This document shows, piece by piece, positions 1 through 17,478 of a stretch of DNA of 64,000 bases. Origin of the DNA: a bacterium (GTDB taxonomy: Bacteria > Electryoneota > Electryoneia > Electryoneales > Electryoneaceae); the NCBI GenBank assembly GCA_963669175.1, contig OY769902.1:608001-672000 (forward strand), in the 5' to 3' direction. Within the stretch, counting starts at the first letter, position 1. Each line of letters opens with the position of its first letter. The position numbers and the translations under genes are program-made. The notes below the pieces were generated by a model. It did no database searches, was not told the DNA's origin, and saw nothing but the letters and a program-made list of their open reading frames with translations.

Positions 1-510
1 CGCTACACTGTGCACACGATTGGAGGCAAGCTGTAGTTCTTCCACGAAGCCGTCATGGCCCCAGTGTTTGAACCGAAATCCGCCCAGCATGTAGTCGATC
101 ATCAGACCGTTCTTACAGATCAGCCGCCGGGCGTTGAAGGACAGTCCGAACAGTGTGCTGGCATCGTACGAATTGATCACGTCCATAGTGACGTGTACCA
201 GGTCACCGGGCCGGACTTCCATCTCCAGGTCGGGCAGCACCCACCGCTGACGATAGCGTTTGCCGTCGAAGATCATCCCGGCATCATCGAAGTACAGACC
301 TGTACGGCCAAGAACGTCTAATGCAATGTTGCTGACATCCTCGTTGGTTACAAGCTGATATCCTGTAGAAACGACACCGACTTCCGTGTCGACACCGTTC
401 TCCGCGATCATGACCGCGTTCCTGCTGGACGGGCTTCCATCCGGTGTGGTCAAAGGAACCAGCTTCACCGGGACGAAGGGATCACTGATATTTGTGTTGC
501 GTCTGGGCAT
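1..510 (-). CDS. DUF932-family protein (phage/plasmid-type), runs off window edge
   Basis: Not in ORF track; manual translation from ATG at 510 (RBS AAGGAG): MPRRNTNISDPF...GVVSTGYQLVTNEDV...VINSYDAST...RLICKNGL; the GVVS.xY..V.N, NSYD and R.xC.NG motifs are typical of DUF932. Confidence 0.75.
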   Translation of the reverse strand, partial: MPRRNTNISDPFVPVKLVPLTTPDGSPSSRNAVMIAENGVDTEVGVVSTGYQLVTNEDVSNIALDVLGRTGLYFDDAGMIFDGKRYRQRWVLPDLEMEVRPGDLVHVTMDVINSYDASTLFGLSFNARRLICKNGLMIDYMLGGFRFKHWGHDGFVEELQLASNRVHSVA

Positions 511-615
511 GGTACTTCTCCTTTCTGAAGGAACAGAGTTCACCCGTGCATAGGGTTTGGTTTACCCTGCAAGGTCTATTGTGTTACGTGGTTCTTGCCG
601 AAACTCGGTAGTGGA

Positions 616-1317
616 TCAGGCGGCGGTACCGATGATGGTAATCAGGTCTTCGGCCTGCTGTGGTGTAAGCTGGGAAATGTTGGCGTTGAAGTTGTCACGT
701 GAGAGTTGGATAACACGCGCCTGTGGGATGCCAATGTCACGGGCCGCCTGGAATATCCGTGCAATCTGGTCGTTGCCAACACGATCCTTGCCTGCTCCAT
801 GTAAACCACCGTTACCGTTCTGAGGATGTGCTGCATGGTTCTGGTGACCATTGCCACGCTGCTGATAACCTCCATTGCGCCGCTGACCGTTCTGGCCATG
901 CGCGTTGCCGTTACCGTTTCCATTGCCGTTGTGACCGTTACCAGGCTGGTCTTGATACAAATACAACCCAATCCCGGCAAGGGTTGCGCACTTCTTCAGG
1001 GCATCGCTGGCTGCAGATTTCAGGTCATCCGCCAGGGAGATCATATCACCTGTGTCTTTATGCCTGGTAATCCGGCTGCCGCCAAACTGTTCGCGAACAG
1101 TATTGTTGATGGTAAGCCTGCAGCGGACAATGACTTCATCCTGCTCAAACTGGGTGTCTACAACATTGAATGACCAGCCGCCTTCCAGGGCTTCGTTCAG
1201 CCTGTGGATGACACTGTTGGCTTCCACGTACTCGAGCGTCTGCCCGAAGTTGCCACGCCGCGTTTTCACCTGTTCAGGGGCGAACGGCGCTGCGAGTTCA
1301 CTGATGGGGATGGACAT
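616..1317 (-). CDS. Rad52/Rad22-family single-strand annealing protein (Sak-like), 233 aa
   Basis: Start moved to ATG 1317 (AGGAGG RBS); motifs L.YVEA..VI.RLNE...GWSF and K.AASDALKK.A...GIGLYLY; Gly/Asn-rich linker and short C-terminal helical domain. Confidence 0.85.
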   Translation of the reverse strand: MSIPISELAAPFAPEQVKTRRGNFGQTLEYVEANSVIHRLNEALEGGWSFNVVDTQFEQDEVIVRCRLTINNTVREQFGGSRITRHKDTGDMISLADDLKSAASDALKKCATLAGIGLYLYQDQPGNGHNGNGNGNGNAHGQNGQRRNGGYQQRGNGHQNHAAHPQNGNGGLHGAGKDRVGNDQIARIFQAARDIGIPQARVIQLSRDNFNANISQLTPQQAEDLITIIGTAA

Positions 1318-1348
1318 GATGTACCTCCTGGTTTGTTGCCGGAAAACA

Positions 1349-1393
1349 CAACAAGATGTTGACAAGTTGTCGCGAAATCCGGCATATTCACAC
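1349..1393 (+). promoter_or_regulatory. Putative sigma70 promoter of abiEi with overlapping inverted repeats
   Basis: TTGACA 1359-1364, 18-nt spacer, CATATT 1383-1388, ATG at 1394; palindromes CAACA-AGA-TGTTG (1349-1361) and GACAA-G-TTGTC (1361-1371). Confidence 0.5.
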
Positions 1394-2026
1394 ATGGATA
1401 CAACTTCACAAGAAAAGCGAGTTCTGGCGATGGTTGCCAAAAGGGGAATCCTTCGCGCACGCGAAGTGGTTGCAGAGGGTGTTGATGACAAGACCCTCCA
1501 TCGTATCCTTGCAAAGGGCCTCATCCAGCGTGTAGGTCGGGGGCTCTACATCTCGGCGGATGCAACACCATCTTCGAATGTTGCGCTGGCCGTAGTTGCG
1601 CGTCGTGTCGGGCACGGTGTTGTCTGCCTGCTAAGTGCGCTTTCATTCCACGGTATCACAACACAACTGCCGCGTGAGGTCTGGCTGGCTGTCAACTGGA
1701 AACCAACCATAGGCACAGATGAGTGGCCGCCGATTCGGACACTGCGTTTCTCCGGTGACGCTTTTACAGAGGGTGTTGAAGTGCACCAGGTTTACCCTGC
1801 GTCGGAAGAGAACGTAAGCAACAGTGTTGCTGTTCGCGTATACAGTCCTGCAAAGACAGTTGCTGACTGCTTCAAGTTCCGGGGAACGGTTGGGCTTGAT
1901 GTTGCCATTGAGGCGCTGCGCGATACACTTCAGCATCAGAAGGCAAGCCGAGATGAAATCTGGCAGTACGCGAAGCTCTGCCGCGTACACAATGTCATGC
2001 GCCCATACCTGGAGGCTACTGCATGA
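1394..2026 (+). CDS. abiEi: Type IV TA system AbiEi-family antitoxin / transcriptional regulator
   Basis: N-terminal wHTH (L...GLIQRVGRGLY), CLLSAL.FHGITTQ.P, VYSPAKTVADCFK.R..VG.DVA.EAL; stop overlaps toxin start (ATGA). Confidence 0.9.
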   Translation: MDTTSQEKRVLAMVAKRGILRAREVVAEGVDDKTLHRILAKGLIQRVGRGLYISADATPSSNVALAVVARRVGHGVVCLLSALSFHGITTQLPREVWLAVNWKPTIGTDEWPPIRTLRFSGDAFTEGVEVHQVYPASEENVSNSVAVRVYSPAKTVADCFKFRGTVGLDVAIEALRDTLQHQKASRDEIWQYAKLCRVHNVMRPYLEATA

Positions 2027-2940
2027 TCACGTCTTCGCCTAAGAACGTGATCGCCTCTATCCGGCAACGACTGCTTAACCTCAGTCGTGAACGGGTAGAA
2101 AGTTTCGATCTTACGCTGAACCGCTATGCTTCCGAGCGGTTACTCTATCGTCTGAGCCTTTCAGATCACAGGGACAAGTTCATTCTTAAAGGAGCCCAGC
2201 TTTTTGCCATTTGGACTACAGAAATGTATCGCCCTACACGTGATATCGATTTACTCGGGTACGGTGAACCAACCCCAGAACACATGGAAGCTGTTTTCCG
2301 TACGCTGTGCGAGATGCCAGTTGAACATGATGATGGGCTTACGTTCGATGCCGACTCCATACAGGCGGCTGAGATTCGTGAGGACAACAGCTACGGTGGT
2401 ATTCGTGTCAGACTATCTACATGGCTCGGCGCTGCTTTAATACCTGTTCAGATTGATATTGGCTTCGGCGATATCCTGACACCTGGCCCACTTGAAACAG
2501 AATTTCCGGTGTTGCTGGGCCACCCAGCCCCTCAGATCAGGGTGTATCCCATTGAAACCGTCATAGCGGAGAAGGTCCAGGCCATGGTCAACCTTGGCAT
2601 AGCAAACAGTCGTATGAAGGACTTCTATGACGTGGCGCATATTGCAGGTCAGTTTACGTTCCAGGGGGCAACACTGGCAACGGCAGTTCAGGCAACATTC
2701 ACGAAGCGTGGCACTGTAATACCCTCAGGTCGCCCAGTCGCCCTGACTGCGGAGTTTGCTGAGGACAAGACGAAACAGCGCCAATGGAAAGCTTTCCTGC
2801 AACGGACGGGCTTGGATGCTTACAAGGACCTCACCAGCCTCATTGAATTCCTTTTTACGTTCACAGAGCCCGTGCTTGTTGCTGCTCGGCAAGGCGATTC
2901 GCTTCTAAAAACCTGGACGCCCGACAAAGGGTGGGAATAG
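2023..2940 (+). CDS. abiEii: AbiEii/AbiGii-family nucleotidyltransferase toxin
   Basis: FILKGA, RPTRDIDL, IDIGFGD, AEK, NSRMKDFYD motifs; translationally coupled to abiEi. Confidence 0.92.
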   Translation: MITSSPKNVIASIRQRLLNLSRERVESFDLTLNRYASERLLYRLSLSDHRDKFILKGAQLFAIWTTEMYRPTRDIDLLGYGEPTPEHMEAVFRTLCEMPVEHDDGLTFDADSIQAAEIREDNSYGGIRVRLSTWLGAALIPVQIDIGFGDILTPGPLETEFPVLLGHPAPQIRVYPIETVIAEKVQAMVNLGIANSRMKDFYDVAHIAGQFTFQGATLATAVQATFTKRGTVIPSGRPVALTAEFAEDKTKQRQWKAFLQRTGLDAYKDLTSLIEFLFTFTEPVLVAARQGDSLLKTWTPDKGWE

Positions 2941-3337: not shown

Positions 3338-5713
3338 TCAGCAGGTACTGGCAGTCAGCCAGTCAGGGGATGTCGGGGCAAGGTAAACGGTCCGGCCACG
3401 AAGCTGAATACGAGCCTGGAAACTCAGGTTCTCTGGGACGGCACTGTACAGCAAATGATCCTGAGGAACCTGTCCCAGGTAAAGCGTGTCCAGCCAGAAG
3501 GCGGCATTGGTTCCGCCATTGGGTCTGGTCGTTACTTTGACAATGTTATCCACTTGCCGAATTTGCGCCAGAACGTCCTCAGGTTTGCTAATCCCCTGGT
3601 TGAGGCTGCCTACCAGCGGGATTACTGCTTCCTGTAGCCAGAGAGGCTGTGGCGTGGATTTCCGTTGGGGTACAATGATAGACCTTATAGTGGACTGCTG
3701 TTCCAGCATAAGGTCTACCGTTTCCTGACTGAAGCAATGGAAAGCAGCGCTGCCGGTTGTCTCGGCACGACTGCCATGCACTACATGCCACATCGCAACA
3801 GCCCAGGCACGGCGGTTGTCGGTCTTGCTTCGATCCCACGCTTCCAGGAAACGGATAGGACCAGCCAGGTCATCTTCACTCGGCTCCGGGTTCTGCTGCA
3901 GGATGGATGCAATCCACTTGTTGTAGGTCATCGTAACCGCCTTCGTCTCTTCGACCAGGTCCAAGGCAGCGGGTTCCATCCAGATCGGGACCAATCCTTT
4001 AAAGTAAACCAGTGAAGAGGTCTGCATGGTGTCCGACTGCCAACGGGCCACCACACGATTGTAGTTGTGGACCAGAGGGAAATCCCGCTCAATCATCTCT
4101 GCTTTCCTGACAAACAGGTCACGGTCTGTCTTTGCTGCAGCGATGTAATCAGGCATCTGCAAATCCGGATCTTCAAGCAATGCCCTGTCAGCTTGCGTGT
4201 TCCATTTCAAACGCTGGACTTCGCACTGCAAACCTGCAGACAAGGCAGCCACTTTATCCAGCCTGCCAGCATGTACAGCGGCGGCGATCCCATAGGTCAG
4301 GGAACCAATCCTGTTGCCAAGTGCCTTGACAGCGACAAAAGGCAATGCCGCAAGGGGATCTTTCAGGCGCGTCTTTGGGGGTGTGTCCTTACGCTGGTAG
4401 TCCGGATACCATTCTGCCGAAGCAACAGCCTCAACCACACTATCCTGTGTATTAATAATATAATAGTCTCCATCAAAGTCACCATCAAGGATACTGGCAA
4501 GATCGTTGTTCAGGTAAACTGTGCCCTCGAGGGGATTGGCTACTGCTTCCGGTTCGTTCCAGACAGCCTGCAGACTCCAGGGATCACGAATTGGGTACCT
4601 TGACAAAATCACCGGGCCAGCAGGGAGATCTACAGCACAGATGACTCCATCAGGCAAATCTGCATAAGCACCCATACAGCCGGTCAATTCGAGCCCACCA
4701 CCAGTGGCAAGTCGGACGTATTCTCGCCTCATCAACTGCACAAGCTGACGATGCAGCCAGGGATGTTCCGGCCCCACACCGGCCTGCAGGAAAGCTTCTG
4801 CTTTGGTGCGAACATCGTTGAACTCATCCTCACGTGACACCAACCCAAGGAAACTCAGGGCGGCCTTACGATCAGTCAGAGCATCACGGATAACATCCAG
4901 CTTCTGTTCGGCCATCGGCCAGACTGCATCCAATACTGCCTGGTCAAACCACTCGGCAATACTGAACGAACTGCTGTAAGGGCGTGTAGTAGCCACATCC
5001 CTGACACCAAACCAGCAGGTCCACGGCTGGTTCTGTGGTGGTGTCCCTGCACCTTTAATCATGCTGTCCGGCAACAGGAAGTTCACCCCGTCATGCAAAT
5101 CGGCGGGCAACAGTGTACCCTTGGCAAGCCATCGTTGATCAGGACTGTCACTGACCAAACGCACCTGTAGCTGTCGTGCAGCCAACCCCAGCTTTTCAAC
5201 CAACGCCTTGGATATGAATCCCATGCCATCGCCAGTGCCAGCCTCACCTTCTGCAACAACATGGCCCTTGATACCATCCAGGCGGTGGATGCCGTGATGA
5301 CACCCGCTGAACAAGGTGCCGAGGTAGCTCAATGCTTCCTGGCTGCTGCGAAAGAAGGGGTGAATCAGCTTGCGGACCTCATCGGTCGCCAGCCAGAAGT
5401 GGCCTTTCTTGATTGAACTGGACCCACCGAGGATACGGAATCGTTTCCCGTCATGGTCCAGCCCTCCCCCCAGCAGGGCCTCACAGGCAGCGTACCAGCG
5501 GTCATCAGGGCCGTCCTCTGGATACTTCAGCTGGATCCGGACCAGGTTGAAAGGATCGATCATCCTTTCTATGATCGTATCCCTCAAGGGAATAGACGGC
5601 GCATGCTTCAACCGCGCTCCATTGTAGGTGTAACACGGAATCATCCTCTGATAAACCTCCTTTGCAAGTTGACGTACCTGTTCTTCTGTCTGCGCCGACA
5701 CTTCGATCTTCAT
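3338..5713 (-). CDS. Single-subunit RNA polymerase, eukaryotic RdRP (QDE-1)/phage YonO-like family, 791 aa
   Basis: Start ATG 5713 with CAGGAGG RBS. Collinear motifs: GKRFRILGGSSS, YLGTLFS, GDGMGFIS, QVR...AKGTL, PDSMIK, VILSRYP, catalytic DGDFDGDY (4466-4486), IGSLT, LQCEVQRLK. Confidence 0.8.
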   Translation of the reverse strand: MKIEVSAQTEEQVRQLAKEVYQRMIPCYTYNGARLKHAPSIPLRDTIIERMIDPFNLVRIQLKYPEDGPDDRWYAACEALLGGGLDHDGKRFRILGGSSSIKKGHFWLATDEVRKLIHPFFRSSQEALSYLGTLFSGCHHGIHRLDGIKGHVVAEGEAGTGDGMGFISKALVEKLGLAARQLQVRLVSDSPDQRWLAKGTLLPADLHDGVNFLLPDSMIKGAGTPPQNQPWTCWFGVRDVATTRPYSSSFSIAEWFDQAVLDAVWPMAEQKLDVIRDALTDRKAALSFLGLVSREDEFNDVRTKAEAFLQAGVGPEHPWLHRQLVQLMRREYVRLATGGGLELTGCMGAYADLPDGVICAVDLPAGPVILSRYPIRDPWSLQAVWNEPEAVANPLEGTVYLNNDLASILDGDFDGDYYIINTQDSVVEAVASAEWYPDYQRKDTPPKTRLKDPLAALPFVAVKALGNRIGSLTYGIAAAVHAGRLDKVAALSAGLQCEVQRLKWNTQADRALLEDPDLQMPDYIAAAKTDRDLFVRKAEMIERDFPLVHNYNRVVARWQSDTMQTSSLVYFKGLVPIWMEPAALDLVEETKAVTMTYNKWIASILQQNPEPSEDDLAGPIRFLEAWDRSKTDNRRAWAVAMWHVVHGSRAETTGSAAFHCFSQETVDLMLEQQSTIRSIIVPQRKSTPQPLWLQEAVIPLVGSLNQGISKPEDVLAQIRQVDNIVKVTTRPNGGTNAAFWLDTLYLGQVPQDHLLYSAVPENLSFQARIQLRGRTVYLAPTSPDWLTASTC

Positions 5714-6010
5714 GATGAACCTCCTGTTGGTTGGTACTTCCATGCATGGAAAAGCCCACATCCCAGTCAAAGCTAAGGCTTTGTTTTTTATGGGGTGGGC
5801 GTGAAAACAGTTGTAAATATAACACTTATTCTCAATTGGTGACCACGAAATTTTGCTGATGTCCTCTCTATATGGATTTTGGTTAAAGCGATATATAGCT
5901 GGGTATACAATTCTGTGTACAAATCTTCTAGTGCGTGTGGAGTATATAGGTATGAGGGCTCAGAAGGGAGCACCTGATCAAACCTGACGAAACAGAAAGG
6001 GCAGGACACA

Positions 6011-6586
6011 ATGCATAAAGAATGTTCGTGCAACCGAATTATCAGATTCATGGTTGCCAGCAAATACGAGTTCAAGGATGGGGCTGTGCGCAAGCCGAAC
6101 GGAGAAAAGATGTATGTCCGGAAATCGGATAACCCCAAACGATACCATCACGTGCAGATAACATGCGAACACAAACGGTACACCATCCAACACTCTCGCC
6201 TTGTTTGTTGGCTGGCTAATATTGAACCACCGACGGAATACCACTTTGTGCATCACCGCAATGGGAACAGGCACGACGACAGTCCCGAAAACCTGGAGTG
6301 GATTAATCGGGCTGAAAATGCCAGGCTGGTTTCACCTGAAACCGCAGCTCAGCGTGTAAAAAACCTGCGTTCCCGTGCGGAAAAGGCAAGGCGGGCAAAG
6401 AGGAAGGCGCCAGTTTACTTACATGATACCCAGAAGGTGGAAATATGCCACAAGTACGAAAGCGGCCTATACACCATTAGAGAACTAGCTGAAGAGTACG
6501 GTCCCTCTTCAGGAACCATTAGCAGGACCGTTCGCAAGGGCTTTTCTTGTGAGGAAAAAGCCCTTGATCTCAAACAGGCTGCGTAA
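6011..6586 (+). CDS. HNH endonuclease-domain protein with C-terminal HTH
   Basis: HSRLV...VHHRNGNRHDDSPENLEWINRAEN (phage HNH type); C-terminal YTIRELAEEYG.S.GTISR.V helix-turn-helix. Confidence 0.8.
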   Translation: MHKECSCNRIIRFMVASKYEFKDGAVRKPNGEKMYVRKSDNPKRYHHVQITCEHKRYTIQHSRLVCWLANIEPPTEYHFVHHRNGNRHDDSPENLEWINRAENARLVSPETAAQRVKNLRSRAEKARRAKRKAPVYLHDTQKVEICHKYESGLYTIRELAEEYGPSSGTISRTVRKGFSCEEKALDLKQAA

Positions 6587-6594
6587 CATAGCAA

Positions 6595-6629
6595 CTCCGG
6601 GTTGATGCGAACCACCCGTCAACCCGGAG
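6595..6629. terminator. Stem-loop after HNH gene
   Basis: Perfect 11-bp stem CTCCGGGTTGA / TCAACCCGGAG; no U-tract, so terminator role is uncertain. Confidence 0.4.
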
Positions 6630-6721: not shown

Positions 6722-8449
6722 ATGCCAGAAATCCCTGGATATCCTGGTGGTAAAAAACCTAAAAGAGCTGGGAAAGCTGTGCGTCTCGACGCATCAGGTA
6801 TTACAGAAGCACAGCTTACACTATATAAATCGTGCTTCACGATGAATCGACGCTATGGGTTACACGTCGTTCGAGATACGTACCCAGGAGCAAAATGGAC
6901 CTCTGTAAATTGGCCGTTTCAGGAACGTGATATTTTGATGCATCTGACTCAGGAACACATCATAGGCTTGCGTTGGTCTAACTATGTAAAATGCGTGGCT
7001 ATCGATATTGATTGTCATTTCAGAACACAAGACTCATTTTTTGTATACCATCCAGGGAATGAAAGAATGGAAAGCATCATAAAAGCATTCGGAGGAGCTA
7101 AACCGCTTATAGTGCAATCATCAGATTCACAAGGTCTGCATTTATATTACTTTCTCGAGAAAGAAGTGCATATTCGCAACGTGGAATTCAGTATTGATCG
7201 TCTTTTCAATAACGCAGGAATTCAAATTCGTTCTGGTTGGATCGAACATGCTACAGGTACCACGAATAGGGCATTAAGACTGCCATTAGGCGAAGGAAGT
7301 CATATCTTACAGTATGAAGATCTTACCCCGGTAGGAAGATCTCTTGGACAGCAGCTTCAGTACCTTGAACACAGGCTTGAGGATTTTACCTACAGGTTTG
7401 AGGACCTTGTGAACACAATGCCGCGCAATTCAGTGTATACTGACTTGGATGATGATAGTGTGAACGGTAATAGTGGACAGACCCATAACAGTAGCCAGGC
7501 GGTTGTAGCACTCACGGATGCAGAAGGGAGGGTTTACCCAAGGGCGGATGATTCCTGTGAGTCAAGGCGGAAATGCGACATCTCGCATGATGATGAAGCC
7601 ATCACTGACAAGCCGCCCCTCTCTCGAGGCCGGAAATACTTCGCGCCTATCAAACTTAATAGAACAGATTATGTTTCTAAAAAAGAACACTCCTCAACTG
7701 CACCCGTTCAGGAACAATTCCAGACAGCTATGTACGCCCTCAAGAATGGCTTGGAAACAGAAGGAACCCGCCAGCATATTACACTGTGCATAGTGACGTA
7801 CACAATGCTCAAACTGGGATTTTCGAAACTGCAAGCCAAAAAGTTTATCAAGTCATGGATCCGTGACAAACACAATGGCAAGTCAAAGGATTGGAATGCC
7901 GGGCCGCGTAAACAGCAGGAAATCTTTGAGGACATTGAACGCCTTGTTGACAAGTGGAAACAGAGAGAAAGCACCGAGGTTTCTTCACTGACTTTAACTG
8001 CTGACGAAATACACAACATTCATAAACTTGACGCCACATTACAGGAAAAAGTGTGGATTGCAGAGTTTTACTCGAAAGTCAAACCTGCGATAAGACAAAA
8101 CCCGTCCGAGCCGCTTGAACTCACCCACTTTTGGTTCCAACGTATCTGGGAGTGCACAGCCGGGACAGCAACGAAAAGAATCAATACACTTATACGATTG
8201 GGAATTTTGGTGCTTGAAACAAACTACTCCGATAAAGCACATGGACGAATCTGGAAAGTGAACAACGTAACCACCGAGATCGGCCTTTACACAACATTCT
8301 GTGAAGGGCTGGATATTCTGTTTTCACGCGAGGAGTTGAAGCAGACATATTCGAAAGCCCAGCTAAGGCGACTCCGGGAACAGTTCACTTCTCCCCATGC
8401 AACAAAAACTGAACAAACTGACCCATTGTGGCAGGACAAAGCCGCCTAG
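6722..8449 (+). CDS. Archaeo-eukaryotic primase (AEP) superfamily primase-polymerase / Rep-like protein with PriCT-like and wHTH-like C-terminal regions
   Basis: Motif I hhhDID (CVAIDID...YHP), motif II SSDSQGLHLYY, motif III region ALRLPLG; GTRQHITL PriCT-like segment; AGGAG RBS. Confidence 0.72.
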   Translation: MPEIPGYPGGKKPKRAGKAVRLDASGITEAQLTLYKSCFTMNRRYGLHVVRDTYPGAKWTSVNWPFQERDILMHLTQEHIIGLRWSNYVKCVAIDIDCHFRTQDSFFVYHPGNERMESIIKAFGGAKPLIVQSSDSQGLHLYYFLEKEVHIRNVEFSIDRLFNNAGIQIRSGWIEHATGTTNRALRLPLGEGSHILQYEDLTPVGRSLGQQLQYLEHRLEDFTYRFEDLVNTMPRNSVYTDLDDDSVNGNSGQTHNSSQAVVALTDAEGRVYPRADDSCESRRKCDISHDDEAITDKPPLSRGRKYFAPIKLNRTDYVSKKEHSSTAPVQEQFQTAMYALKNGLETEGTRQHITLCIVTYTMLKLGFSKLQAKKFIKSWIRDKHNGKSKDWNAGPRKQQEIFEDIERLVDKWKQRESTEVSSLTLTADEIHNIHKLDATLQEKVWIAEFYSKVKPAIRQNPSEPLELTHFWFQRIWECTAGTATKRINTLIRLGILVLETNYSDKAHGRIWKVNNVTTEIGLYTTFCEGLDILFSREELKQTYSKAQLRRLREQFTSPHATKTEQTDPLWQDKAA

Positions 8450-8843: not shown

Positions 8844-8873
8844 ATTATTATGCTTTATGACTTTGGAGGAAGA

Positions 8874-11570
8874 ATGTTTATAGCTAAATGGGATGGCGAT
8901 GACACCCATGATCTGATCGCTCACGTGTTAGATGTAGCAGCAGTGGTGAAACTGCTGATACACGACCATCTGACAAAGAATAGCCGTGCAACCCTTTTAG
9001 AATCGTTCCCCGGGTATTCAGTGGAACCTGTTATTCAGTTAGTGTGTTTCCTTGCGGGACTGCATGATATTGGCAAGGGAACTCCCTGGTTCCAAGCGAG
9101 ACATCAACCAACATTACAAGCCCTCGTCACTATGGGATATGCTTTTCGCGGTTCTAATCAACCTCACGCGTTCCTATCCCAATACCTCATTCCCAGCATT
9201 CTCCTTCAAATTTGGCCAGAGTGGAGAGATTCCCAAAAATGGTTAAATCGTGTGGGCAAGCTATTAGGTGGTCACCATGGTCTATTCTGCGCATCATTTA
9301 CACCCCCGCGCCGAGACCTGGGGGATGGCAAATGGGATCATACTCGGTTGGAAATAGTTCGAACAATCGCTCAAGTCCTACAGATTGATTCTTCAGTACA
9401 ACCAACAATTGAGTATACATCTGATCGTTTCAATGTGACCTTCGCGGGTCTCGTAACCATAGCAGACTGGATCGGAAGCCAACAGGACTTTTTTCCGTTT
9501 GTCCCCATAATTGATGATCCTTCCTCGTATTGGCGGACAAGCCAAGAGCAAGCAAGACATGCACTGGATAAGATGGGCTGGCGAACGCACCGTCCAGTAG
9601 CTGTCTCTAATCAGCTTGATAGGTATTTTCCGGATGCTAAGGATCCCGTATGGCGCCCGGTTCAGGAGATCGTTAAACGGGCATTGCCTGATAAACCTGC
9701 AGCCTCCCTGATCATTGTCGAGGATAGCACCGGAGGCGGAAAAACAGAGGCATCATGGTTGGCCGCAGAAACAGATTGGCATCGACTGGAACAAGCCGGT
9801 CTATATATAGGGATGCCAACAATGGCTACCAGTAATGCTATGCATAAACGTTTGCAGGAATACCTCGCCTCAAGCTACCCAGACGAAGTGGTCAATCTGC
9901 AACTTGCGCATAGCCTTGCAACTCTCGATAATCCATCAGCGCTCACATCTGTAGGTGATCCTGAAGCCAATAATAATCACACCCACGGTACAACAACCGC
10001 AGAATCCTGGTTTCTTCCAAAAAAGCGTACTCTTTTCGCGCCGTTCGGGGTGGGAACTGTTGACCAAGCACTTATGGCTGTGCTGCAAGTCAAACATTTC
10101 TACCTGCGTCTATTCGCACTTGCTGGGACAACGGTCATTTTTGATGAGATCCACGCGTATGACGTGTACATGTCCACACTTTTTGATTGCTTACTCCGCT
10201 GGCTCGGAGAACTGGGCGTTACAGTGGTGCTTCTATCGGCAACTTTGCCCTCAGCACGTCGCAAACAACTCATAGAGGCATATTGTGGTCAGGTTGACTT
10301 AAAGGTTCCAGATACTACCGACGGGGAATTCCCCAGGGTTCATGTTGTCAACTCCGATGGAATCTATTTAAACACACCCGGTAAAGCCGCAGTACCCTCC
10401 ACACCGAATAGATCTGTGTCAGTACAGGTTGTGTACGAGGAAGATGAGGCAATACTTGAACGCCTACACAACTTTCTGCAAGATGGGGGCTGCGGGGTCT
10501 GGATCTGCAATACCGTCGCGGACGCGCAGAAACGATATCGTGACTGGCAAGAACGATATCCGGATTGGCTAGAGGAAGAAATGATCCTCTTTCATGCCCG
10601 TTTTCCCTTTGGCCGCAGAGCTGAAATCGAAGAGCAGATTCAGAATCTGTTTGGCAAGAACGACACGATACGACCAACTAGGACTATAGTTTTCGCGACT
10701 CAGGTAATTGAGCAGAGCCTGGATGTTGACTTCGATGTGATGGTGTCGGACCTGGGACCTATCGACTTACTGATTCAGCGTATCGGCCGCCTCCAGCGAC
10801 ACAGGCATCTTCAACGCCCGGAACGCTTCAGTGACAATCCTGTTTGTTTTGTAGCCTCGCCGCTATTGGGCAAAGATGGTGTTCCGCTGTGGGGAAACCA
10901 AGCGAAGATTTACGATGAATTCATTTTGCTGAAAACGTGGCGGGTTCTCGGATTGCTTGACGGACACCCGGTCAGTCTTCCCACGGAATCTGACCACCTC
11001 ATCAACTTTGTATATGACACAATGATTCCAAGCAATCTGCCAGACCGATTGGACCAGGTGTTTATTGCAGCAAAGGCAAAATCAGACAAGGCTGCCGAGG
11101 ACGATAGAACAAAGGCGGAAACAATAGTCATCAAGGAACCACGACCTGTTGGCAGAGAAAGCATCATGGATCAGGCAAGTAAGAATCTCGATGAGGATGA
11201 TCCTTTAATACACGAGTCCTTACGTGCAGCAACAAGGCTGGGGCCACCCTCTGTAACCGTGATATGTGTCCACCAGGTAAAACAAGGTATAGCGTTAGAT
11301 GCAAAAGGTTCAGACCTGTTTGACCTGAACACGGATATCAATCATAAGCTTGTACAGGATTTAATGCGTCAGTCACTCAATATTTCATGCTACAATCCAG
11401 CCAGGTTAACTGCAGTATTCGAGGCTTCGGTTATGCCAGTGGGTTGGAAAAGACACGCGGCATTACGATACACAGTATTGTTACCTCTGGTCGATGGCCA
11501 GATTCAGTTGGGAAAGGAGGTGTTTCGGCTGAACGATGATGAAGGATTGGTAATCACGAGGCAATTCTAA
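8874..11570 (+). CDS. cas3: CRISPR-associated helicase/nuclease Cas3 (type I-E)
   Basis: HD domain (H.LDVAAV, LHDIGK, HHG, ADWIGS), TGGGKTEA, DEIHAYD, SAT, ATQVIEQSLDVD, QRIGRLQRH; start 8874 has GGAGG RBS. Confidence 0.97.
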   Translation: MFIAKWDGDDTHDLIAHVLDVAAVVKLLIHDHLTKNSRATLLESFPGYSVEPVIQLVCFLAGLHDIGKGTPWFQARHQPTLQALVTMGYAFRGSNQPHAFLSQYLIPSILLQIWPEWRDSQKWLNRVGKLLGGHHGLFCASFTPPRRDLGDGKWDHTRLEIVRTIAQVLQIDSSVQPTIEYTSDRFNVTFAGLVTIADWIGSQQDFFPFVPIIDDPSSYWRTSQEQARHALDKMGWRTHRPVAVSNQLDRYFPDAKDPVWRPVQEIVKRALPDKPAASLIIVEDSTGGGKTEASWLAAETDWHRLEQAGLYIGMPTMATSNAMHKRLQEYLASSYPDEVVNLQLAHSLATLDNPSALTSVGDPEANNNHTHGTTTAESWFLPKKRTLFAPFGVGTVDQALMAVLQVKHFYLRLFALAGTTVIFDEIHAYDVYMSTLFDCLLRWLGELGVTVVLLSATLPSARRKQLIEAYCGQVDLKVPDTTDGEFPRVHVVNSDGIYLNTPGKAAVPSTPNRSVSVQVVYEEDEAILERLHNFLQDGGCGVWICNTVADAQKRYRDWQERYPDWLEEEMILFHARFPFGRRAEIEEQIQNLFGKNDTIRPTRTIVFATQVIEQSLDVDFDVMVSDLGPIDLLIQRIGRLQRHRHLQRPERFSDNPVCFVASPLLGKDGVPLWGNQAKIYDEFILLKTWRVLGLLDGHPVSLPTESDHLINFVYDTMIPSNLPDRLDQVFIAAKAKSDKAAEDDRTKAETIVIKEPRPVGRESIMDQASKNLDEDDPLIHESLRAATRLGPPSVTVICVHQVKQGIALDAKGSDLFDLNTDINHKLVQDLMRQSLNISCYNPARLTAVFEASVMPVGWKRHAALRYTVLLPLVDGQIQLGKEVFRLNDDEGLVITRQF

Positions 11571-11589
11571 CAAACCGAAAGGTATATTC

Positions 11590-13173
11590 ATGGCACCATT
11601 CAACCTTGTAACAGAAGCCTGGATTCCGTGTTTGAAGCCCGATTGGATCGTCGTGGAAGCTGGGCTGCGGGATGTACTTCTGAGCGCTCATGAGTTCCGC
11701 GAGATGCAGGATACATCTCCCTTGGTCACAGCATCGTTGCATCGTCTCCTGATAGCTCTGGTTGCGTCCATGTACTCACCCAAGACGCTTGATGACTGGT
11801 TGGCGCTCTGGGAGAAAAAGCAATTCTATGCTGAAACAGTGAATACCTATTTCGCAGATCGGATGGATCGATTCGATCTGTTCCATCCCGATTACCCTTT
11901 CTACCAGGTAGCGAAATTCAAGGTCAACAAACCATCTCCGATCAGCCAGCTAGCCATGGAAGAAGTGTCAGGGAACAACCCAGTGCTTTTCGACCATCGT
12001 AGGGACGATGCGCCTGATCCAATTCCACCCGAAGTCGCTGCACGGCGACTTGTCGCGCTACAGAACTTTGCGGTTGGATTTGGACAGAGCGCAAAACCGG
12101 AGATAGATGGAAAGAATGTAGTGACCAAACGTATCGACACAGGTGATGGTCCACTCGCACGCGGATCGACCCTGATTGTTTATGGTGGCAACCTATTCGA
12201 AACTCTGATACTGAACACGCTTCCGGCTTCCCTACGGGAAGAAACCCTTCTCGAGAATGGAACAGCAGTGTGGGACCGAATCAAGCCAGTTCGGCCAGGC
12301 GAACCACGACACCCTGACGGATACTTGGACCAACTTACCTGGCCTACTCGCTGGGCTCGTCTGCTTCCAGATGGTGTTTCCTGCAAAACTCTATCGTCAG
12401 TATATCTTGCGCAAGGCTCACGGATGTCAGGTGACGTTATGGATCCTATGAAGCGGTACAAGCGGGATGAAAAGCAGGGTTGGTTATCCCAATCGATGAG
12501 AGCAGACCGCGCACTCTGGCGGGATAGTGCTGCCTGGTTGGAATTCAGCGATACGAACCGTCCTCCAGCGACACTAAGAATGATCCGGAACTTGGTGGAG
12601 GAATCAGATTTAGACACCTCAAAGACATTGGATCTTCGCGTCTTTGGTTTCGGAACCAAACCAGGGAAAGCTGCCGCTATCCAGTTCTGGCGTGCAGATG
12701 CAATCTCGGTCCCAATGGAATTTCTTGAGGATGAGGATCTGGTGGCACGACTTCGTCAATGCTTGGAGTGGGCCGAGCGTGGTGCAAAGACTCTTCGTAG
12801 CGCCATCTGGAAATTCGGTGATGTTTACCTCCCCGATATGGGGAAAGATCAGAAGACCGCCAAAATTGAAGATTTAATTCAAAACCTGGCTCCCATTAAT
12901 CGTTACTGGCCAGACATGGAGCTTCATTTTCGCGCCCTGTTGTTCGCCTTGATTGATGATCCGGACCAGGCAGAAACCGACTGGATGGATCAGATCGAAA
13001 ACACCGCAAGAAGTGCTCTCGAACATACCCTTCGAAAACTACCCATCAAGGGCCGAGACCAACAGGCAGCTGTTCATTCACGGGGCGTATTGAACAGCCT
13101 GTTACGCAGAATTCGCAATGATGCAGGGTTATTGCCTGTACCAACAGAGGAGGATACCTATGACAGTAAATGA
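11590..13173 (+). CDS. cas8e: Type I-E Cascade large subunit Cas8e (Cse1/CasA)
   Basis: FNLVTEAWIP, RFDLFHP..PFYQ, GNN..LFDH, NLFETL.LN, TWP.R, ALWRD; follows cas3. Confidence 0.95.
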   Translation: MAPFNLVTEAWIPCLKPDWIVVEAGLRDVLLSAHEFREMQDTSPLVTASLHRLLIALVASMYSPKTLDDWLALWEKKQFYAETVNTYFADRMDRFDLFHPDYPFYQVAKFKVNKPSPISQLAMEEVSGNNPVLFDHRRDDAPDPIPPEVAARRLVALQNFAVGFGQSAKPEIDGKNVVTKRIDTGDGPLARGSTLIVYGGNLFETLILNTLPASLREETLLENGTAVWDRIKPVRPGEPRHPDGYLDQLTWPTRWARLLPDGVSCKTLSSVYLAQGSRMSGDVMDPMKRYKRDEKQGWLSQSMRADRALWRDSAAWLEFSDTNRPPATLRMIRNLVEESDLDTSKTLDLRVFGFGTKPGKAAAIQFWRADAISVPMEFLEDEDLVARLRQCLEWAERGAKTLRSAIWKFGDVYLPDMGKDQKTAKIEDLIQNLAPINRYWPDMELHFRALLFALIDDPDQAETDWMDQIENTARSALEHTLRKLPIKGRDQQAAVHSRGVLNSLLRRIRNDAGLLPVPTEEDTYDSK

Positions 13174-13798
13174 CGAAAAACGTGAGGTTGCGTTCGTCCG
13201 CAAACTGGTTGACTTATGGGAAGACCGGGGAGCAATGGCGAATCTGCGTCGAGGTCTTCGGGTTGAAAACCCGAAAGCAGACGCCCGCATGGTGTCAACG
13301 ATTGCACCGATGCTGTATGGAGTGTCCGCATCTGACGAAGATCGCTTCTATTGGATTGCATCTCTGTTCGCTACAGTTCATACCGGTTCGAATAAACCGG
13401 TCTGGATGAAGATGCATCTCGATGAACCGGCTGAAATCTGGAAACGCCATACAATTGGGGAGGCCTTCCATAAGATGAGTGCGGCTGAACGGCGAGAACG
13501 TAACCTCAAGCCGGACAAAAAAACCAGCACAGATAGCCGCTTTGAAAAACTGATGAACAGCAACTGGGAAGATCTGCCCAACAGGCTGCGCCACGCTGTC
13601 CGTCAACTTGCATCACGCCATGGCTCGGATCGTGAACGGGTGGACATTGACTGGGTCCGCCTGCTGCACGACATCGCACCGCGCAGGTTCAATAGTCCAG
13701 AACGATACATCCAGCAGGCTTGGGCGAATAGCTACTGGCGTACCACCACGAAGAAGGAAGAAGAAAACAAAACAACTGAAAAGACTGAAAACGCATAA
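13160..13798 (+). CDS. cse2: Type I-E small subunit Cas11 (Cse2/CasB)
   Basis: DRG..A.LRRG, RF..L, LRHAV, IDW..LL.D, WA..YW; start ATG 13160 with GGAGG RBS. Confidence 0.93.
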   Translation: MTVNDEKREVAFVRKLVDLWEDRGAMANLRRGLRVENPKADARMVSTIAPMLYGVSASDEDRFYWIASLFATVHTGSNKPVWMKMHLDEPAEIWKRHTIGEAFHKMSAAERRERNLKPDKKTSTDSRFEKLMNSNWEDLPNRLRHAVRQLASRHGSDRERVDIDWVRLLHDIAPRRFNSPERYIQQAWANSYWRTTTKKEEENKTTEKTENA

Positions 13799-13815
13799 CA
13801 CAAGGAGAAAGACCC

Positions 13816-14967
13816 ATGTTTATCGAATTGCACATGATCCAGAACATTCCCCCGGCCAACCTGAACCGGGATGACAGTGGCGCTCCCAAGGATTGTGAGT
13901 TCGGCGGCCATCGTCGTGCACGGATCTCATCCCAGAGCCTCAAGCGTGCGATCAGGTTTCATGATGATATGCGAAATTTGGAAGGTGCATCACCGTCCCA
14001 GCGTACAAAGCGAATTGTGGAACAGGTCGTTGATCGGCTTGTCAACGGCGGTCATGATAAGGAAAAAGCGGAATCCATCGTCAAGATCGTTATGGACGCC
14101 GCAGGGGTTTCGACAGATGACAAGGGGAAATCCAGCATCCTGTTCTTTATCAATGACGCCGCAATGGACTGCATTGCTCAACTCATCCATGACCACTTTG
14201 AAGACTTGGACCAGAAGAAAAAGAAGGACATTCCCGGCGATGTCGTCAACGAGATCGTGGACATTTTCCTGGAAGAGATCCACTCCCCGGATCTCGCCCT
14301 GTTCGGTAGGATGGTGGCTGTCGATCCCAAATCACCTCTCGGTGCAAAGAACTTGAAGATCAACGCTGCCTGCCAGGTCGCACACGCCATAAGCACCAAT
14401 CGTGTCAGCATGGATGAAGACTTCTTCACCGCTGTGGATGATTTGAATCCTGATGAAGAGACTGGCGCTGGCATGATGGGCGTGATCGATTTCAATAGCT
14501 CGTGCTTTTACAGATACAGTGTCATCGATACCCGCGCCCTGGAAGCGAATCTGGGCCATGACCAGAAACTCGCTGAGAACACAGTTCACGCTTTCATCAA
14601 AGCGTCTGTCGAGTCGCTGCCGAGCGGCAAGCAGAACAGCTTCGCCGCACATACTCGTCCGGATTTCGTGCTGGCCATCGTCCGTAAGGGGCAACCACTC
14701 TCCTTGGCTAATTCGTTCGCCAACCCGGTTCGTCCCTGGCAGAACGAAGGCATGGTGGAGGCTAGCGTGAAAGCAATGTATGAACACCTCAAGAAGCTCA
14801 CCGAAACGTATGGTGACGGCGACCTGATCGAGCATTTCTGGATCTATACAAAAGATCTGTCCGAAGAAGACAAAAAGAGGTGGGAAGAAGTGTTTGGTTT
14901 CAAGGACGAAAGCCTCGAAACCCTCATTGGTGACACTATTGGGCAAGCATTTCCCGAGGAGGATTAA
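13816..14967 (+). CDS. cas7: Type I-E backbone Cas7 (Cse4/CasC)
   Basis: NLNRDD.GAPK, RARISSQS.KRAIR, LALFGRM, QVAHAIST, DFFTAVDD, PSGKQNSFA. Confidence 0.97.
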   Translation: MFIELHMIQNIPPANLNRDDSGAPKDCEFGGHRRARISSQSLKRAIRFHDDMRNLEGASPSQRTKRIVEQVVDRLVNGGHDKEKAESIVKIVMDAAGVSTDDKGKSSILFFINDAAMDCIAQLIHDHFEDLDQKKKKDIPGDVVNEIVDIFLEEIHSPDLALFGRMVAVDPKSPLGAKNLKINAACQVAHAISTNRVSMDEDFFTAVDDLNPDEETGAGMMGVIDFNSSCFYRYSVIDTRALEANLGHDQKLAENTVHAFIKASVESLPSGKQNSFAAHTRPDFVLAIVRKGQPLSLANSFANPVRPWQNEGMVEASVKAMYEHLKKLTETYGDGDLIEHFWIYTKDLSEEDKKRWEEVFGFKDESLETLIGDTIGQAFPEED

Positions 14968-14970
14968 ACC

Positions 14971-15657
14971 ATGGCAGTCTTACTCCTGCAACTGATGGGT
15001 CCGATGCAGGCATGGGGGCTGCAAAGCCGGTTCGATATCCGGGATACAGGACGTGAACCGTCCAAGTCCGGTGTAGTAGGAATGCTTGCTTCGGCTTTAG
15101 GCAGATCTCGTTCGGAACCCATTGATGATCTGGCCGCTCTACGTATGGGAGTCCGTGTGGATCGTGAGGGTGTTCTGATGCGGGATTTCCAGACCACCAT
15201 GTCTGTACCGAAAGCGGCCGGAGGTGAATTTGGGACCGTAACTAGCGACCGATATTACCTGAGTGATGGTGCATTCCTTGTGGGACTGGAGGGTGAGCGC
15301 TCGCGACTGGAAACCGTATCGCAGGCCCTGGCTATCCCACGCTGGCCGCTATACCTGGGGCGTCGGGCGATGCCGCCCGCGGAACCGTTGCTGGTCGGAA
15401 ACGGCGAACTTATGGATACAACCCTCGAGACCGCTTTGCAGAATCACCAATGGCTTCATGACTATACTCACAATCCCAGTCGTCCGGCGAAAGTCCGCCT
15501 GTTGATCGAGGTTACTCCGAACGATGCACACAAGGCAGGCGTAACTGTTGAAAGACGACCGGATCAACCGGTGACGTTCATGCCGCCAACCCATACCATC
15601 CGGTATGTAGCCACCAAGTTTATTCCCCTTCCACCCGAAGATAGAGGAGGTGAATGA
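14971..15657 (+). CDS. cas5: Type I-E Cas5 (CasD)
   Basis: GPMQAWG, R.T...PSKSGV.G.LA.ALGR, RYYLSD, PLYLGRR. Confidence 0.96.
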   Translation: MAVLLLQLMGPMQAWGLQSRFDIRDTGREPSKSGVVGMLASALGRSRSEPIDDLAALRMGVRVDREGVLMRDFQTTMSVPKAAGGEFGTVTSDRYYLSDGAFLVGLEGERSRLETVSQALAIPRWPLYLGRRAMPPAEPLLVGNGELMDTTLETALQNHQWLHDYTHNPSRPAKVRLLIEVTPNDAHKAGVTVERRPDQPVTFMPPTHTIRYVATKFIPLPPEDRGGE

Positions 15658-16304
15658 TGCCCTATCTGTCACGACTGCTGCTTAACCCTGTCGGACGGGG
15701 CGTTGTCCGAGAGCTGCAGCATCCCTATGAGATGCACCGAACGCTTATGCGGAGCTTCGCGCCCAGGTCGCGTGAGGAGATTGGAAGCGTACTGTTTCGG
15801 GCAGATCTTCCGAAGGATACAACTCCCATCAAACTCTACGTCCAGTCTGATCATGAACCCGATTGGACCTTCCTCGCTGATTGGGAAAATTACCTGGTGA
15901 ACTGCGATTCAGCAACCACCAATCCTGCTGTCAAGCCATTCAAACCAGAGTTTTCCACTGGAATGCATTACCGGTTTCGGTTGCGCGCCAACCCAACCGT
16001 CAAGAAAAACGGGAAACGGATCGGTTTGGTCGGCCAGAAAGCTCAAGTGACCTGGATGCTGCGGAAAGCAGAACAACATGGATTCACATTATCCTCAGAG
16101 TCACTGCTTGCTCGCAACGAGGGCTATCTGCGAACTGGGACGTTGCAGAAAAACGAAGCCCAACACATGATGACACACCTGGCCGTTACGTATGATGGGG
16201 TGCTGCGTGTCGTTGATCCCTTAAAATTCCACGACGCCTGGCGCAACGGTATCGGTCCGGCTAAAGCCTTCGGATTTGGTCTGCTGAGTCTTGCGCCGGC
16301 TTGA
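15654..16304 (+). CDS. cas6: Type I-E Cas6 (Cse3/CasE) crRNA endoribonuclease
   Basis: YLSRL, H..L, FRLRANP, C-terminal GIGPAKAFGFGLLSL glycine loop. Confidence 0.96.
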   Translation: MMPYLSRLLLNPVGRGVVRELQHPYEMHRTLMRSFAPRSREEIGSVLFRADLPKDTTPIKLYVQSDHEPDWTFLADWENYLVNCDSATTNPAVKPFKPEFSTGMHYRFRLRANPTVKKNGKRIGLVGQKAQVTWMLRKAEQHGFTLSSESLLARNEGYLRTGTLQKNEAQHMMTHLAVTYDGVLRVVDPLKFHDAWRNGIGPAKAFGFGLLSLAPA

Positions 16305-16551
16305 GTTGGAAGGAATTAGTTTTCAATTGACAGGGTACCTGGGCAACTGAGTATCCACCATCCAGTTCTTTGACAAGCGAACCTATGACAGTCAGATATG
16401 GAAAATGGGGGCTGGCTCGATTTGTTTTGTTCAATGGTGATTTCAGCTTGCTGAAGTTTCGGAACAAATGGTGTCTGTCCCGCATTTTCCGGTCATGAGA
16501 ACGATAACTTCCAGGAGAAGTATGAGTTCCTGATATCACCGGAGGTATATC

Positions 16552-17478
16552 ATGCAGGATTATCGTTCATTGCCGAAGCTTCGGGACAGCATCAGCCATT
16601 TGTATGTGGAGCATGCGCGTGTGGACAAGGAGGCGCAATCCATCGCTTTGCAGGACAAGGACGGGATTGTGTCTGTGCCTGTATCCGCGTTAACCCTGCT
16701 GATGCTCGGTCCCGGGACAACCATTACCCACCAGGCGGTCAAGGTGCTTGCGGACAGCGGGTGCCTGACAGTCTGGTGCGGAGAAGGCGGCATCCGTTAC
16801 TACGCGCATGGGTTGGGCGAGACCAGGAAAGGCTACAAGCTTGAACGGCAGGCACGGTTGTGGGCGGACGAAGAGAAACACATGGCGGTTGTTCGTGCCA
16901 TGTATTTCAAACGTCTTGGTCTTCGCAACCTGAAACCGTACAACCTTGAGCAGTTGCGTGGGATGGAAGGCGCACGGGTCCGTGACAGTTACGCCCAGAT
17001 GAGCCGTGAGACCGGCGTGCCCTGGAAGGGACGTCAGTATGACCGGAGCGCCTGGAACCGTGGCGATGAGGTCAACCGTGCCCTCTCTACCGCCAACTCC
17101 TGTTTGTATGGTCTTTGCCATGCCGCGATCATTTCTGGCGGGTATTCTCCCGGATTGGGCTTCATCCATTCCGGTAAACAGCTTTCGTTTGTCTACGATA
17201 TCGCTGACCTGTACAAGATGGAAGTTACTGTACCGGTTGCCTTTAACACGGTCAAAGAAGGCCCGGAACACCTGGAACGGACCATCCGCAAGAACTGTCG
17301 GGATCAGTTTTTCAGGACAAAGCTGTTGTCACGTATTCTCCCGGACATCGACGAACTGTTCAACCTGGGCGAACGTGCGGATGAACTCCCCCTTGACGAC
17401 TGGCCTGAAGATGAAGATCCGGCACGTCCGGCGCCGTACTGGGGCTCAGACCGTGACAGTGGAGGTGAACCATGGTAG
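16552..17478 (+). CDS. cas1: Type I-E Cas1 integrase
   Basis: [49 protein letters not shown]. Confidence 0.98.

Follow-up and report, generated by a model that had tools for sequence, protein, structure and literature searches.

We analysed a 64,000-nucleotide stretch of a bacterial genome from the family Electryoneaceae (assembly GCA_963669175.1, contig OY769902.1, positions 608,001 to 672,000; G000:C1:608001-672000), referred to below as the window, together with the 40 kb to its left (L003). The left part of the window belongs to an integrative island at a tRNA-Arg gene, and this island carries a gene for a predicted single-chain polymerase resembling the RNA-dependent RNA polymerases (RdRPs) of eukaryotes. 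The gene and the conserved element next to it were located as follows.

3338..5713, minus strand: polymerase gene, 791 amino acids (aa), stop codon included, ATG start at 5713
5792..5876, minus strand: conserved non-coding element upstream of the polymerase gene

The polymerase gene and its predicted fold

A first-pass annotation made from the sequence alone had proposed a 791-aa open reading frame (ORF) with a strong ribosome-binding site at 3338..5713. Both the coordinates and the ribosome-binding site (AGGAGG, 6 nt upstream of ATG 5713) stood; what had to be added was the strand, which is minus. The longest frame at the locus spans 3338..5770 (minus strand; 810 aa) and begins at a TTG. It was noted that the translation carries GKRFRILGGSSS, GTLFS, DGMGFIS, QVR...KGTL, SMIK, VILSRYP, DFDGD (residues 412-416) and EVQRLK, which is every motif that the annotation had listed.

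A search of 5.8 billion clustered proteins returned 21 other relatives at E <= 1e-3, all of them derived from metagenomes or metagenome-assembled genomes and either labelled 'hypothetical' or unlabelled. Across the 22-sequence alignment, the invariant residues were D162, Q183, R185, K198-G-T, K220, R372, P374, R376 and G411-D-x-D-G-D416, and the DFDGD motif, which had been called intact, was invariant in 22/22 sequences. When the polymerase profile was compared with 1.84 billion representatives, 682 were matched at E <= 1e-3, 422 at <= 1e-10 and 196 at <= 1e-30. The gene is under strong purifying selection, with a ratio of nonsynonymous to synonymous substitution rates (dN/dS) of 0.08-0.12 against orthologues of 76% and 69% identity; in the same comparisons the synonymous sites were near saturation (proportion of synonymous differences, pS, ~0.70). 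It is very improbable that the gene is a decayed, non-catalytic relic of a phage polymerase that serves no function. The island does hold other selfish insertions, such as an HNH homing endonuclease, but the 791-codon frame is intact, dN/dS is ~0.1 with orthologue synonymous sites near saturation, and both the candidate catalytic residues (all invariant) and the upstream element are conserved.

The only meaningful family match of the polymerase was to the Pfam RdRP model PF05183 (E 0.0034, residues 162-441), at 16.6 bits against a gathering cut-off of 23.8. Since this is below the threshold, the polymerase is described here as an RdRP-like relative and not as a formal Pfam member. The HMMER comparison proposed in the first-pass annotation was nonetheless supported across the family, as PF05183 was matched at E <= 0.01 in 14 of the 22 members (best 2.7e-10). 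No match to the polymerase was found in PHROGs, NCBIfam or PADLOC, by phmmer against the PDB or by tblastn against 50,697 phage records, and in PADLOC-DB 2.0 there were 0 families at E <= 0.01 for the polymerase (P0002) and its relatives P0013 and P0019. A scan of a viral contig collection gave a single relative (L004, 29% identity). With the family profile against PDB sequences, QDE-1 was on top (E 0.14), and the HMMER alignment placed sRYPvR on QDE-1 ARSPAH and GDfDGD on GDYDGD, so that R372-Y-P374 and G-D412-F-D414-G-D416 align to the QDE-1 catalytic loop. The fourth aspartate of QDE-1 and the arginine and lysine from its first barrel are D709, R738 and K743 (PMC2919709). D162, R185 and K198 are candidate counterparts of these three, being invariant and suitably ordered and spaced, and they fall within the PF05183 match.

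The AlphaFold2 model of the polymerase had a mean predicted local distance difference test (pLDDT) score of 88.0 and a predicted template-modelling (pTM) score of 0.77, with residues 676-695 alone disordered. In this model, DFDGD lies on a loop between strands 398-401 and 417-421 of the second barrel (pLDDT >90 there), in keeping with what had been predicted. Foldseek against the PDB ranked maize RDR2 first (7w82; E 1.7e-22, TM score 0.59 on the query), with Arabidopsis RDR2 at E 8.5e-19 and QDE-1 at E 4.5e-18. The Thermus-phage proteins P32 gp64 / P74 gp62 followed at E ~1e-11, P23-45 gp96 at ~3e-5 and the crAss-like phi14:2 gp66 at 5e-4, while the cellular RNA polymerases (RNAPs) were above 1e-3. 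VIA-align, a re-scoring of Foldseek's own match list, gave RDR2 a Z of 26.7 (595 residues, root-mean-square deviation 4.0, model 23-674 on chain 372-1111), gp64 24.5 (519 residues), gp62 23.7 (514 residues), QDE-1 ~19.5 and gp96 ~14. The two-barrel matches ranged over 26.7-13.7, and the largest subunits of cellular RNAPs scored ~11 over model residues ~336-554. Matches in a viral model library were uncharacterised phage proteins (two named RdRP by their depositors) and P23-45 A7XX94. The cellular RdRP fold proposed from the motifs is thus upheld by the PF05183 signal across the family and by a pLDDT-88 model that matches RDR2, QDE-1 and phage RNAPs over ~520-610 residues.

As modelled, residues ~23-677 form a complete single-chain two-barrel polymerase core. 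The marks of the two-barrel superfamily were found in the structural match and in the DxDxD loop with its preceding R-x-P, and by the Foldseek and VIA-align scores the eukaryotic RdRPs are no more remote from the predicted structure than any phage enzyme of solved structure. The likeness to RDR2 and QDE-1 extends over nearly the full core, with the RxP and DxDGD motifs aligned. However, the identity is 12-17%, and the polymerase is ~300 residues shorter than the eukaryotic enzymes, being without the region before RDR2 residue ~370. Unlike them, it has its own C-terminal beta-rich domain, resides on a mobile bacterial island and has no RNA interference (RNAi) partner genes nearby. The C-terminal domain (residues ~690-791) is family-specific. 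It was covered by no structural match, and among the 1.84 billion representatives the closer profile matches reached profile position ~770 while the more distant ones ended near 660-670. The model lends a slight preponderance to the view that the polymerase is an active single-subunit two-barrel (double-psi beta-barrel) enzyme of the RdRP/QDE-1-like branch, for which we infer catalysis.

The tRNA-Arg island that carries the gene

The features of the island, in order from the tRNA gene to its far border, were as follows.

L003:17059-17135: tRNA-Arg(ACG), 2.9 kb left of the window
L003:17219-18301, minus strand: tyrosine integrase, beside the tRNA-Arg gene
L003:18682-19533, minus strand: PD-(D/E)XK/Cas4-like exonuclease
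1..543, minus strand: DUF932 / TIGR03299 phage-plasmid-like protein, the gene running past the window start
616..1524, minus strand: Rad52/Erf-like single-strand annealing protein
1052..2940, plus strand: AbiEi-AbiEii pair
6011..6586, plus strand: HNH_3 homing-endonuclease-like gene, between the polymerase gene and the primase-like gene
6722..8449, plus strand: probable archaeo-eukaryotic primase (AEP) or primase-polymerase, 575 aa, cluster cl1
8850..17753, plus strand: type I-E cas operon (cas3, cse1, cse2, cas7, cas5, cas6e, cas1, cas2)
17764..20180, plus strand: CRISPR array, 40 repeats of 29 nt and 39 spacers
20460..20504, plus strand: attR, exact 45-bp copy of the 3' part of tRNA-Arg(ACG)

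We found that L003:17089-17133 and window positions 20460-20504 form an exact 45-bp direct repeat, and because the island is bounded by this repeat of tRNA-Arg, its length is 23,416 bp. The integrase next to the tRNA gene and the copy of the tRNA's 3' part at the other border are the marks of a tRNA-integrating island, and they substantiate the integrative element that had been supposed from the sequence. An asparaginase gene flanks the island to the left of tRNA-Arg and a C69 peptidase gene to the right of the repeat. In an empty-site comparison, the right flank was located in 1 of 5 relatives, on a different contig from the left flank. The island runs in the order integrase, exonuclease, DUF932, Rad52/Erf-like, AbiEi/AbiEii, polymerase, HNH, 575-aa protein, type I-E operon, CRISPR array and attR, with the polymerase and AbiE genes on opposite strands. 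The exonuclease and the Rad52-like protein make up a recombination pair. Matches to the AbiEi model start at about residue 117 of the ORF 1052-2026, so the true start is probably further downstream, and this 5' over-extension would explain why the ORF seems to overlap the Rad52-like gene of the opposite strand.

The entire type I-E adaptive immune system is mobile cargo, since the AEP-like gene and attR flank it within the tRNA-Arg island. The first CRISPR repeat begins 10 nt after cas2, and degenerate repeats occupy the far end of the array (20029-20180). When the spacers were compared with all examined loci, one 15-nt chance match was found and nothing else. No virion family was matched among the scanned ORFs of the window and the 5 kb upstream, which agrees with the earlier remark that virion genes are not visible. 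Scans for sigma-70-type promoters and terminators did not rise above shuffled sequences.

It was also noted that a further copy of the 45-bp tRNA-Arg repeat lies 6.6 kb away from the tRNA in one related genome (G009, C33:314588-321301), and that another genome (G013, C2:3167002-3209032) has two such copies, 28.7 and 42 kb away. Since the repeat bounds other tRNA-Arg insertions in these genomes, its role as an attachment site is supported, and this suggests a common integration hotspot with different or tandem islands at tRNA-Arg.

The remaining window is chromosomal and encodes iron-sulfur proteins, a sigma-54 activator and type IX-secreted C25 peptidases. Four tandem Peptidase_C25 (gingipain-like) genes of 1684, 1676, 1657 and 874 aa occupy 43071-63395, and a type IX secretion sorting domain was found in three of these proteins and in a further 746-aa protein. 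A 93-bp tandem repeat (2.4 copies, 96% match) is intergenic just outside the island at 22412-22636. A Bro-N domain protein (38567-39415) stands alone among chromosomal genes; the Bro-N family is common in phages and mobile elements.

Backbone, payload and upstream element in close relatives

We compared the island with loci of relatives drawn from species-representative genomes (10 loci), metagenomes (19 loci, L015-L033) and the viral collection (1 locus). The close clade comprises the window's own locus and L005-L011, at 52-76% identity, which amounts to 8 loci from 6 genomes, all belonging to the family of the window. Within the phylum, the polymerase profile matched 5 of 15 other genomes of the window's family and none of 45 that belong to other families, and two genomes of the close clade carry two polymerase copies. 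Recurrence was counted from ORF clustering across loci and a Pfam scan, with several close-clade contigs ending 0.4-2.5 kb from the polymerase gene. The genes found next to the polymerase in six of these loci differed as follows.

Own locus: AbiE and CRISPR-Cas
L005: type I restriction-modification and AAA_13, with an ISL3 transposase
L006: Eco57I-like methylase, DarT, Macro, a 1801-aa DEAD/MZB (YprA-like) helicase and AbiE
L007: 1819-aa methylase and SNF2 helicase
L008: ThsB-TIR, YgjP and type I restriction-modification
L011: DUF1156 methylase, PIN, DUF7680 and DUF499

The integrase, DUF932 and Rad52-like genes were present in 3 of the 8 close loci (own, L008 and L011), and PD-(D/E)XK, HNH_3 and HTH_17 genes in 2 of 8 each. 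L005 starts at a tRNA-Ser and L010 at a tRNA-Val. We determined that the polymerase is a backbone gene and not cargo, because the polymerase and its upstream element are constant while the defense cargo changes; it lies at the margin of a defense bay whose content varies. The HNH_3 gene is probably an independent selfish insertion. In the two loci that carry it, it lies beside the polymerase on different sides (window 6011-6586; L005:12509-13093).

The upstream element was kept in 8/8 close loci, though the synonymous sites of the polymerase gene are near saturation. Its positions in the relatives were L005:9729-9864, L006:9697-9832, L007:9837-9972, L008:9801-9936, L011:9798-9933, L010:6855-6990 and L009:2474-2609, at ~45-180 nt from the polymerase start codon, varying by locus. 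It consists of a palindrome-like box (CCTTATAGGGC type; CCCTATAGGG in L007), AAATTTCC, ACCTAT and a C-rich box, TTCCACGCCCACCCC. In the own locus, L005, L007, L008, L010 and L011 the element sits at a junction with divergent genes. RNAalifold predicted 0 pairs in it, and Rfam returned nothing at E <= 1 for window positions 2900-9000. The element is a candidate operator or promoter, or an origin. A repeated polymerase-specific promoter was also considered and was dropped, the C-box and the palindrome box being single-copy per locus.

Replication links and candidate roles of the polymerase

The distant relatives (31-38% identity) come mostly from marine contigs. In these loci, a serine resolvase gene and a 64-aa ORF lie upstream of the polymerase gene, and the other neighbors include HTH_17, DUF932, RadC (8 loci), Mu Gam/Gp157-like, ArdC, AAA_25 and PcfJ genes. 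A module of resolvase, 64-aa ORF, polymerase, cl3, HTH_17 and DUF932/RadC was observed in seven of the marine loci (L017-L019, L027, L029, L031 and L032), where cl3 denotes a 668-aa protein encoded directly downstream of the polymerase in 7 of the 19 metagenome loci. Residues 408-596 of cl3 match PADLOC RTasPolA (E 5.4e-7). In another 4 of the 19 metagenome loci there is a convergent gene whose product scores above the cut-off for the Pfam DNA_pol_A domain (E 2.2e-12). Elsewhere, L013 carries a PriCT_1 primase-type protein, L030 an AAA_25 ATPase, and L004 a single-strand-binding protein (SSB) together with RadC.

Several proteins of the family are fusions. The polymerase core is joined to an N-terminal RNase H in P0081 (1900 aa), to an N-terminal AlkB-like 2OG-Fe(II) oxygenase in P0169 (1221 aa) and to a C-terminal DUF4326 in P0087 (1899 aa). 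In the close locus L005, an RNase H gene adjoins both cl1 and the polymerase gene. By tblastn, 14 cyanobacterial plasmids were found to carry relatives at 23-28% identity, and PLSDB typing classed 6 of them as conjugative, 3 as mobilisable and 5 as non-mobilisable. The plasmid neighbors, in the three regions examined, were VapE, HU, Gp157-family, N6 methylase, M67 peptidase and large DEAD helicase genes.

These neighborhoods bear on whether the polymerase could be a true RdRP of defense or counter-defense that uses phage or element transcripts as templates for double-stranded or antisense RNA. The best structural and profile similarity is indeed to the eukaryotic RNAi RdRPs, and the gene lies among defense genes in 6 of the 8 close loci. 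However, the neighboring defense systems are unrelated and vary between loci that all retain the polymerase, neither an Argonaute nor an RNase III family was matched among the island genes, and PADLOC has no match for the polymerase. The distant relatives are found amid SSB, RadC, ArdC, Gam-like, PolA-like and primase genes, the plasmids lack defense neighbors, and the fusions to RNase H and to an AlkB-like domain suggest substrates linked to DNA. A defense role of this kind is therefore judged quite unlikely. The stronger proposal, in which a genuine bacterial RdRP and closest prokaryotic kin of the RNAi amplifier is carried by defense islands and triggers or tunes immunity, appears more unlikely still.

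The 575-aa neighbor of the polymerase (cl1) was present in 4 of the 8 close loci (own, L005, L010 and L011). Its nearest Atlas clusters were PF22548 AEP-TOTE (score 0.98), and it matched a PHROG primase at E 6.4e-4 (aa 62-152) and NCBIfam PrimPol_Msp at E 0.0017 (aa 39-164). All three primase signals are independent of one another, lie on the N-terminal residues 39-164 and are below the curated cut-offs, and against Pfam there was nothing at E <= 0.01. On these sequence matches, cl1 is likely a primase-polymerase or replication initiator. For cl3, a homologue search returned close relatives and nothing further, a PDB profile search gave a single chance-level match, and the nearest named Atlas cluster was DNA_pol_A (score 0.81), which is a lead only. 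On a reading of its sequence, cl3 may carry the PolA motifs A, B and C.

The role of the polymerase is narrowed to an element-backbone function, and within it we infer a DNA template and a part in priming or transcription. In the reading we prefer, the polymerase is a backbone gene of a tRNA-integrating, non-viral island whose payload here is AbiE and type I-E CRISPR-Cas, and it would make RNA on the element's own DNA, independent of the host RNAP. Synthesis of this RNA would begin within the conserved element that precedes the polymerase gene, or close to it. The resulting primer or R-loop transcript could then be used by the adjacent primase-polymerase or PolA-like enzyme for island replication. 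Such a supply of primers or R-loop transcripts is put forward as the leading sub-model, and tentatively. Priming is favored because the two-barrel enzyme is retained while its replicative partner differs (AEP, PolA-like, PriCT), because RNase H is linked to the polymerase by both neighborhood and fusion, and because the upstream cis element is single-copy.

Transcription of the island genes in the manner of YonO or gp64 is a close alternative, nearly as likely and likewise put forward tentatively. The polymerase would then be a dedicated transcriptase with its own promoter or promoters, transcribing the backbone and perhaps the defense payload when the host RNAP is shut off or absent. The tested phage relatives, YonO and P23-45 gp64/gp96, are DNA-dependent RNAPs, and promoter-specific (PMC10770324; PMC5467207). 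In the structural comparison, the gp64-type enzymes also ranked second (Z 24.5). In L008 and L011 the polymerase heads a co-oriented run of Rad52-DUF932-(PD-(D/E)XK-cl1-HTH_17)-integrase genes, and the position of the upstream element at divergent-gene junctions in the six loci named above would suit a promoter. However, the conserved boxes occur once per island and no repeated promoter is visible, the L006 cargo is co-directional and not divergent, and a small island with ~10 backbone genes has little obvious need for an RNAP of its own.

The phage enzymes themselves resemble the polymerase in part. The gp64 protein of Thermus phage P23-45 (and gp62 of P74-26; PDB 8f72, 8f5m) is a single-subunit two-barrel RNAP of similar size, described as a monomeric DNA-dependent RNAP with a DxDxD loop (PMC10770324). 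It shares 11% identity with the polymerase, and its Foldseek E is 11 orders of magnitude weaker than that of RDR2. Whereas gp64 is encoded by an early gene of its phage and transcribes phage genes, the polymerase lies on a non-viral integrative island. YonO of SPbeta is, by description, likewise a single-chain two-barrel polymerase of a mobile element that is distantly related to the RdRPs. It transcribes the SPbeta late genes (PMC5467207) and sits in a complete prophage, in contrast to an island without virion family matches. About 50 YonO-like bacterial proteins have been counted in Firmicutes, cyanobacteria and two Bacteroides genomes (PMC2919709). Because tblastn against the phage records gave no match, any relation of the polymerase to YonO would be below BLAST range.

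A special case of priming would make the polymerase an establishment factor that starts RNA on incoming single-stranded DNA (ssDNA) once the element has been transferred by mobilisation or packaging, so that the complementary strand can be synthesised or genes expressed early. This would parallel the action of plasmid-borne primases in recipient cells. The relatives have neighbors of the ssDNA-entry type (SSB, RadC, ArdC, Mu Gam/Gp157-like, DUF932 and PcfJ), 9 of the 14 cyanobacterial plasmids were typed as conjugative or mobilisable, and QDE-1 can use ssDNA templates (PMC9508822). Against this, no relaxase or transfer gene was seen among the island genes, and the protein would need to be synthesised or delivered in advance of its action. 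The same observations fit the replication-priming model equally, and an establishment role is considered unlikely.

Several points weigh against priming on a DNA template as the role of the polymerase. The fold does not fix the template, as RDR2, the best match, is RNA-templated, and QDE-1 uses both RNA and ssDNA. The gene abuts defense cargo, which leaves room for a defense-linked role. The upstream element is single-copy per island, giving no sign of a dedicated promoter set, and it may simply be the operator of the polymerase gene itself. For cl1, the AEP call consists of three weak, sub-threshold signals, a PDB profile search gave no match, and the detectable relatives number 3. The cl1 gene was not seen in 4 of the 8 close loci, three of which have cut flanks, and the fourth, L008, lacks it over 10 kb on both sides of the polymerase. 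A true primase-polymerase could also prime alone, in which case a second primer-maker would be redundant. The PolA-like call for cl3, made from PADLOC RTasPolA, is weak; no match was found in Pfam, hhalign against the DNA_pol_A cluster gave a probability of 3%, and the structure model had a pLDDT of 41.8.

Work of 2003-2010 had already brought to light single-chain two-barrel polymerases with kinship to RNAi RdRPs, both in phages and in scattered bacterial genomes. To our knowledge, the members tested so far are phage enzymes only, all of them transcriptases. Two-barrel RdRP-like polymerases of mobile elements are already described, and what is new here is the setting on a non-viral, defense-carrying island. 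An RdRP-like unit in rhizobial type III effectors was described in a 2026 paper (PMC13667924). The tRNA-integrated, satellite-like defense islands of a 2025 preprint (PMC12458937) share with the present island the repeat of a tRNA 3' end, an integrase, few phage-like genes and a large defense payload. Their repeats are described as 16-20 nt, as opposed to 45 bp here, and the main text of that preprint has 0 occurrences of 'RNA polymerase', 'primase', 'DUF932' or 'Rad52'. In TV-Pol elements, a predicted primase-polymerase that is PolA-like occurs together with a resolvase or integrase (PMC2579912), and the marine relatives are similar, with an added two-barrel polymerase. In that 2008 paper, two-barrel polymerases are mentioned in one passage, as introductory background. 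RadC-type modules appear in the relatives as they do in the described islands and TV-Pol elements. A literature search, with most subscription journals outside its coverage, returned no description of this polymerase family (a prior description is possible), none of a two-barrel polymerase as a backbone gene of defense-carrying integrative islands, and none of such a polymerase paired with primase-polymerase genes.

The family brings a predicted, nearly full-length RDR2/QDE-1-like core into non-viral elements, namely integrative defense islands and plasmids, where it is tied to primase-polymerase, PolA-like and RNase H genes and not to virion or late-gene modules. If the priming role is true, it would represent a new kind of primase fold in bacteria. 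If the polymerase transcribes the island, defense islands would possess host-independent expression, and an RNA-templated role, if true, would provide a prokaryotic forerunner of RNAi amplification outside phages. With its 791-aa member, the family may offer a compact and tractable model for the origin of RNA-templated RdRPs from DNA-templated ones.

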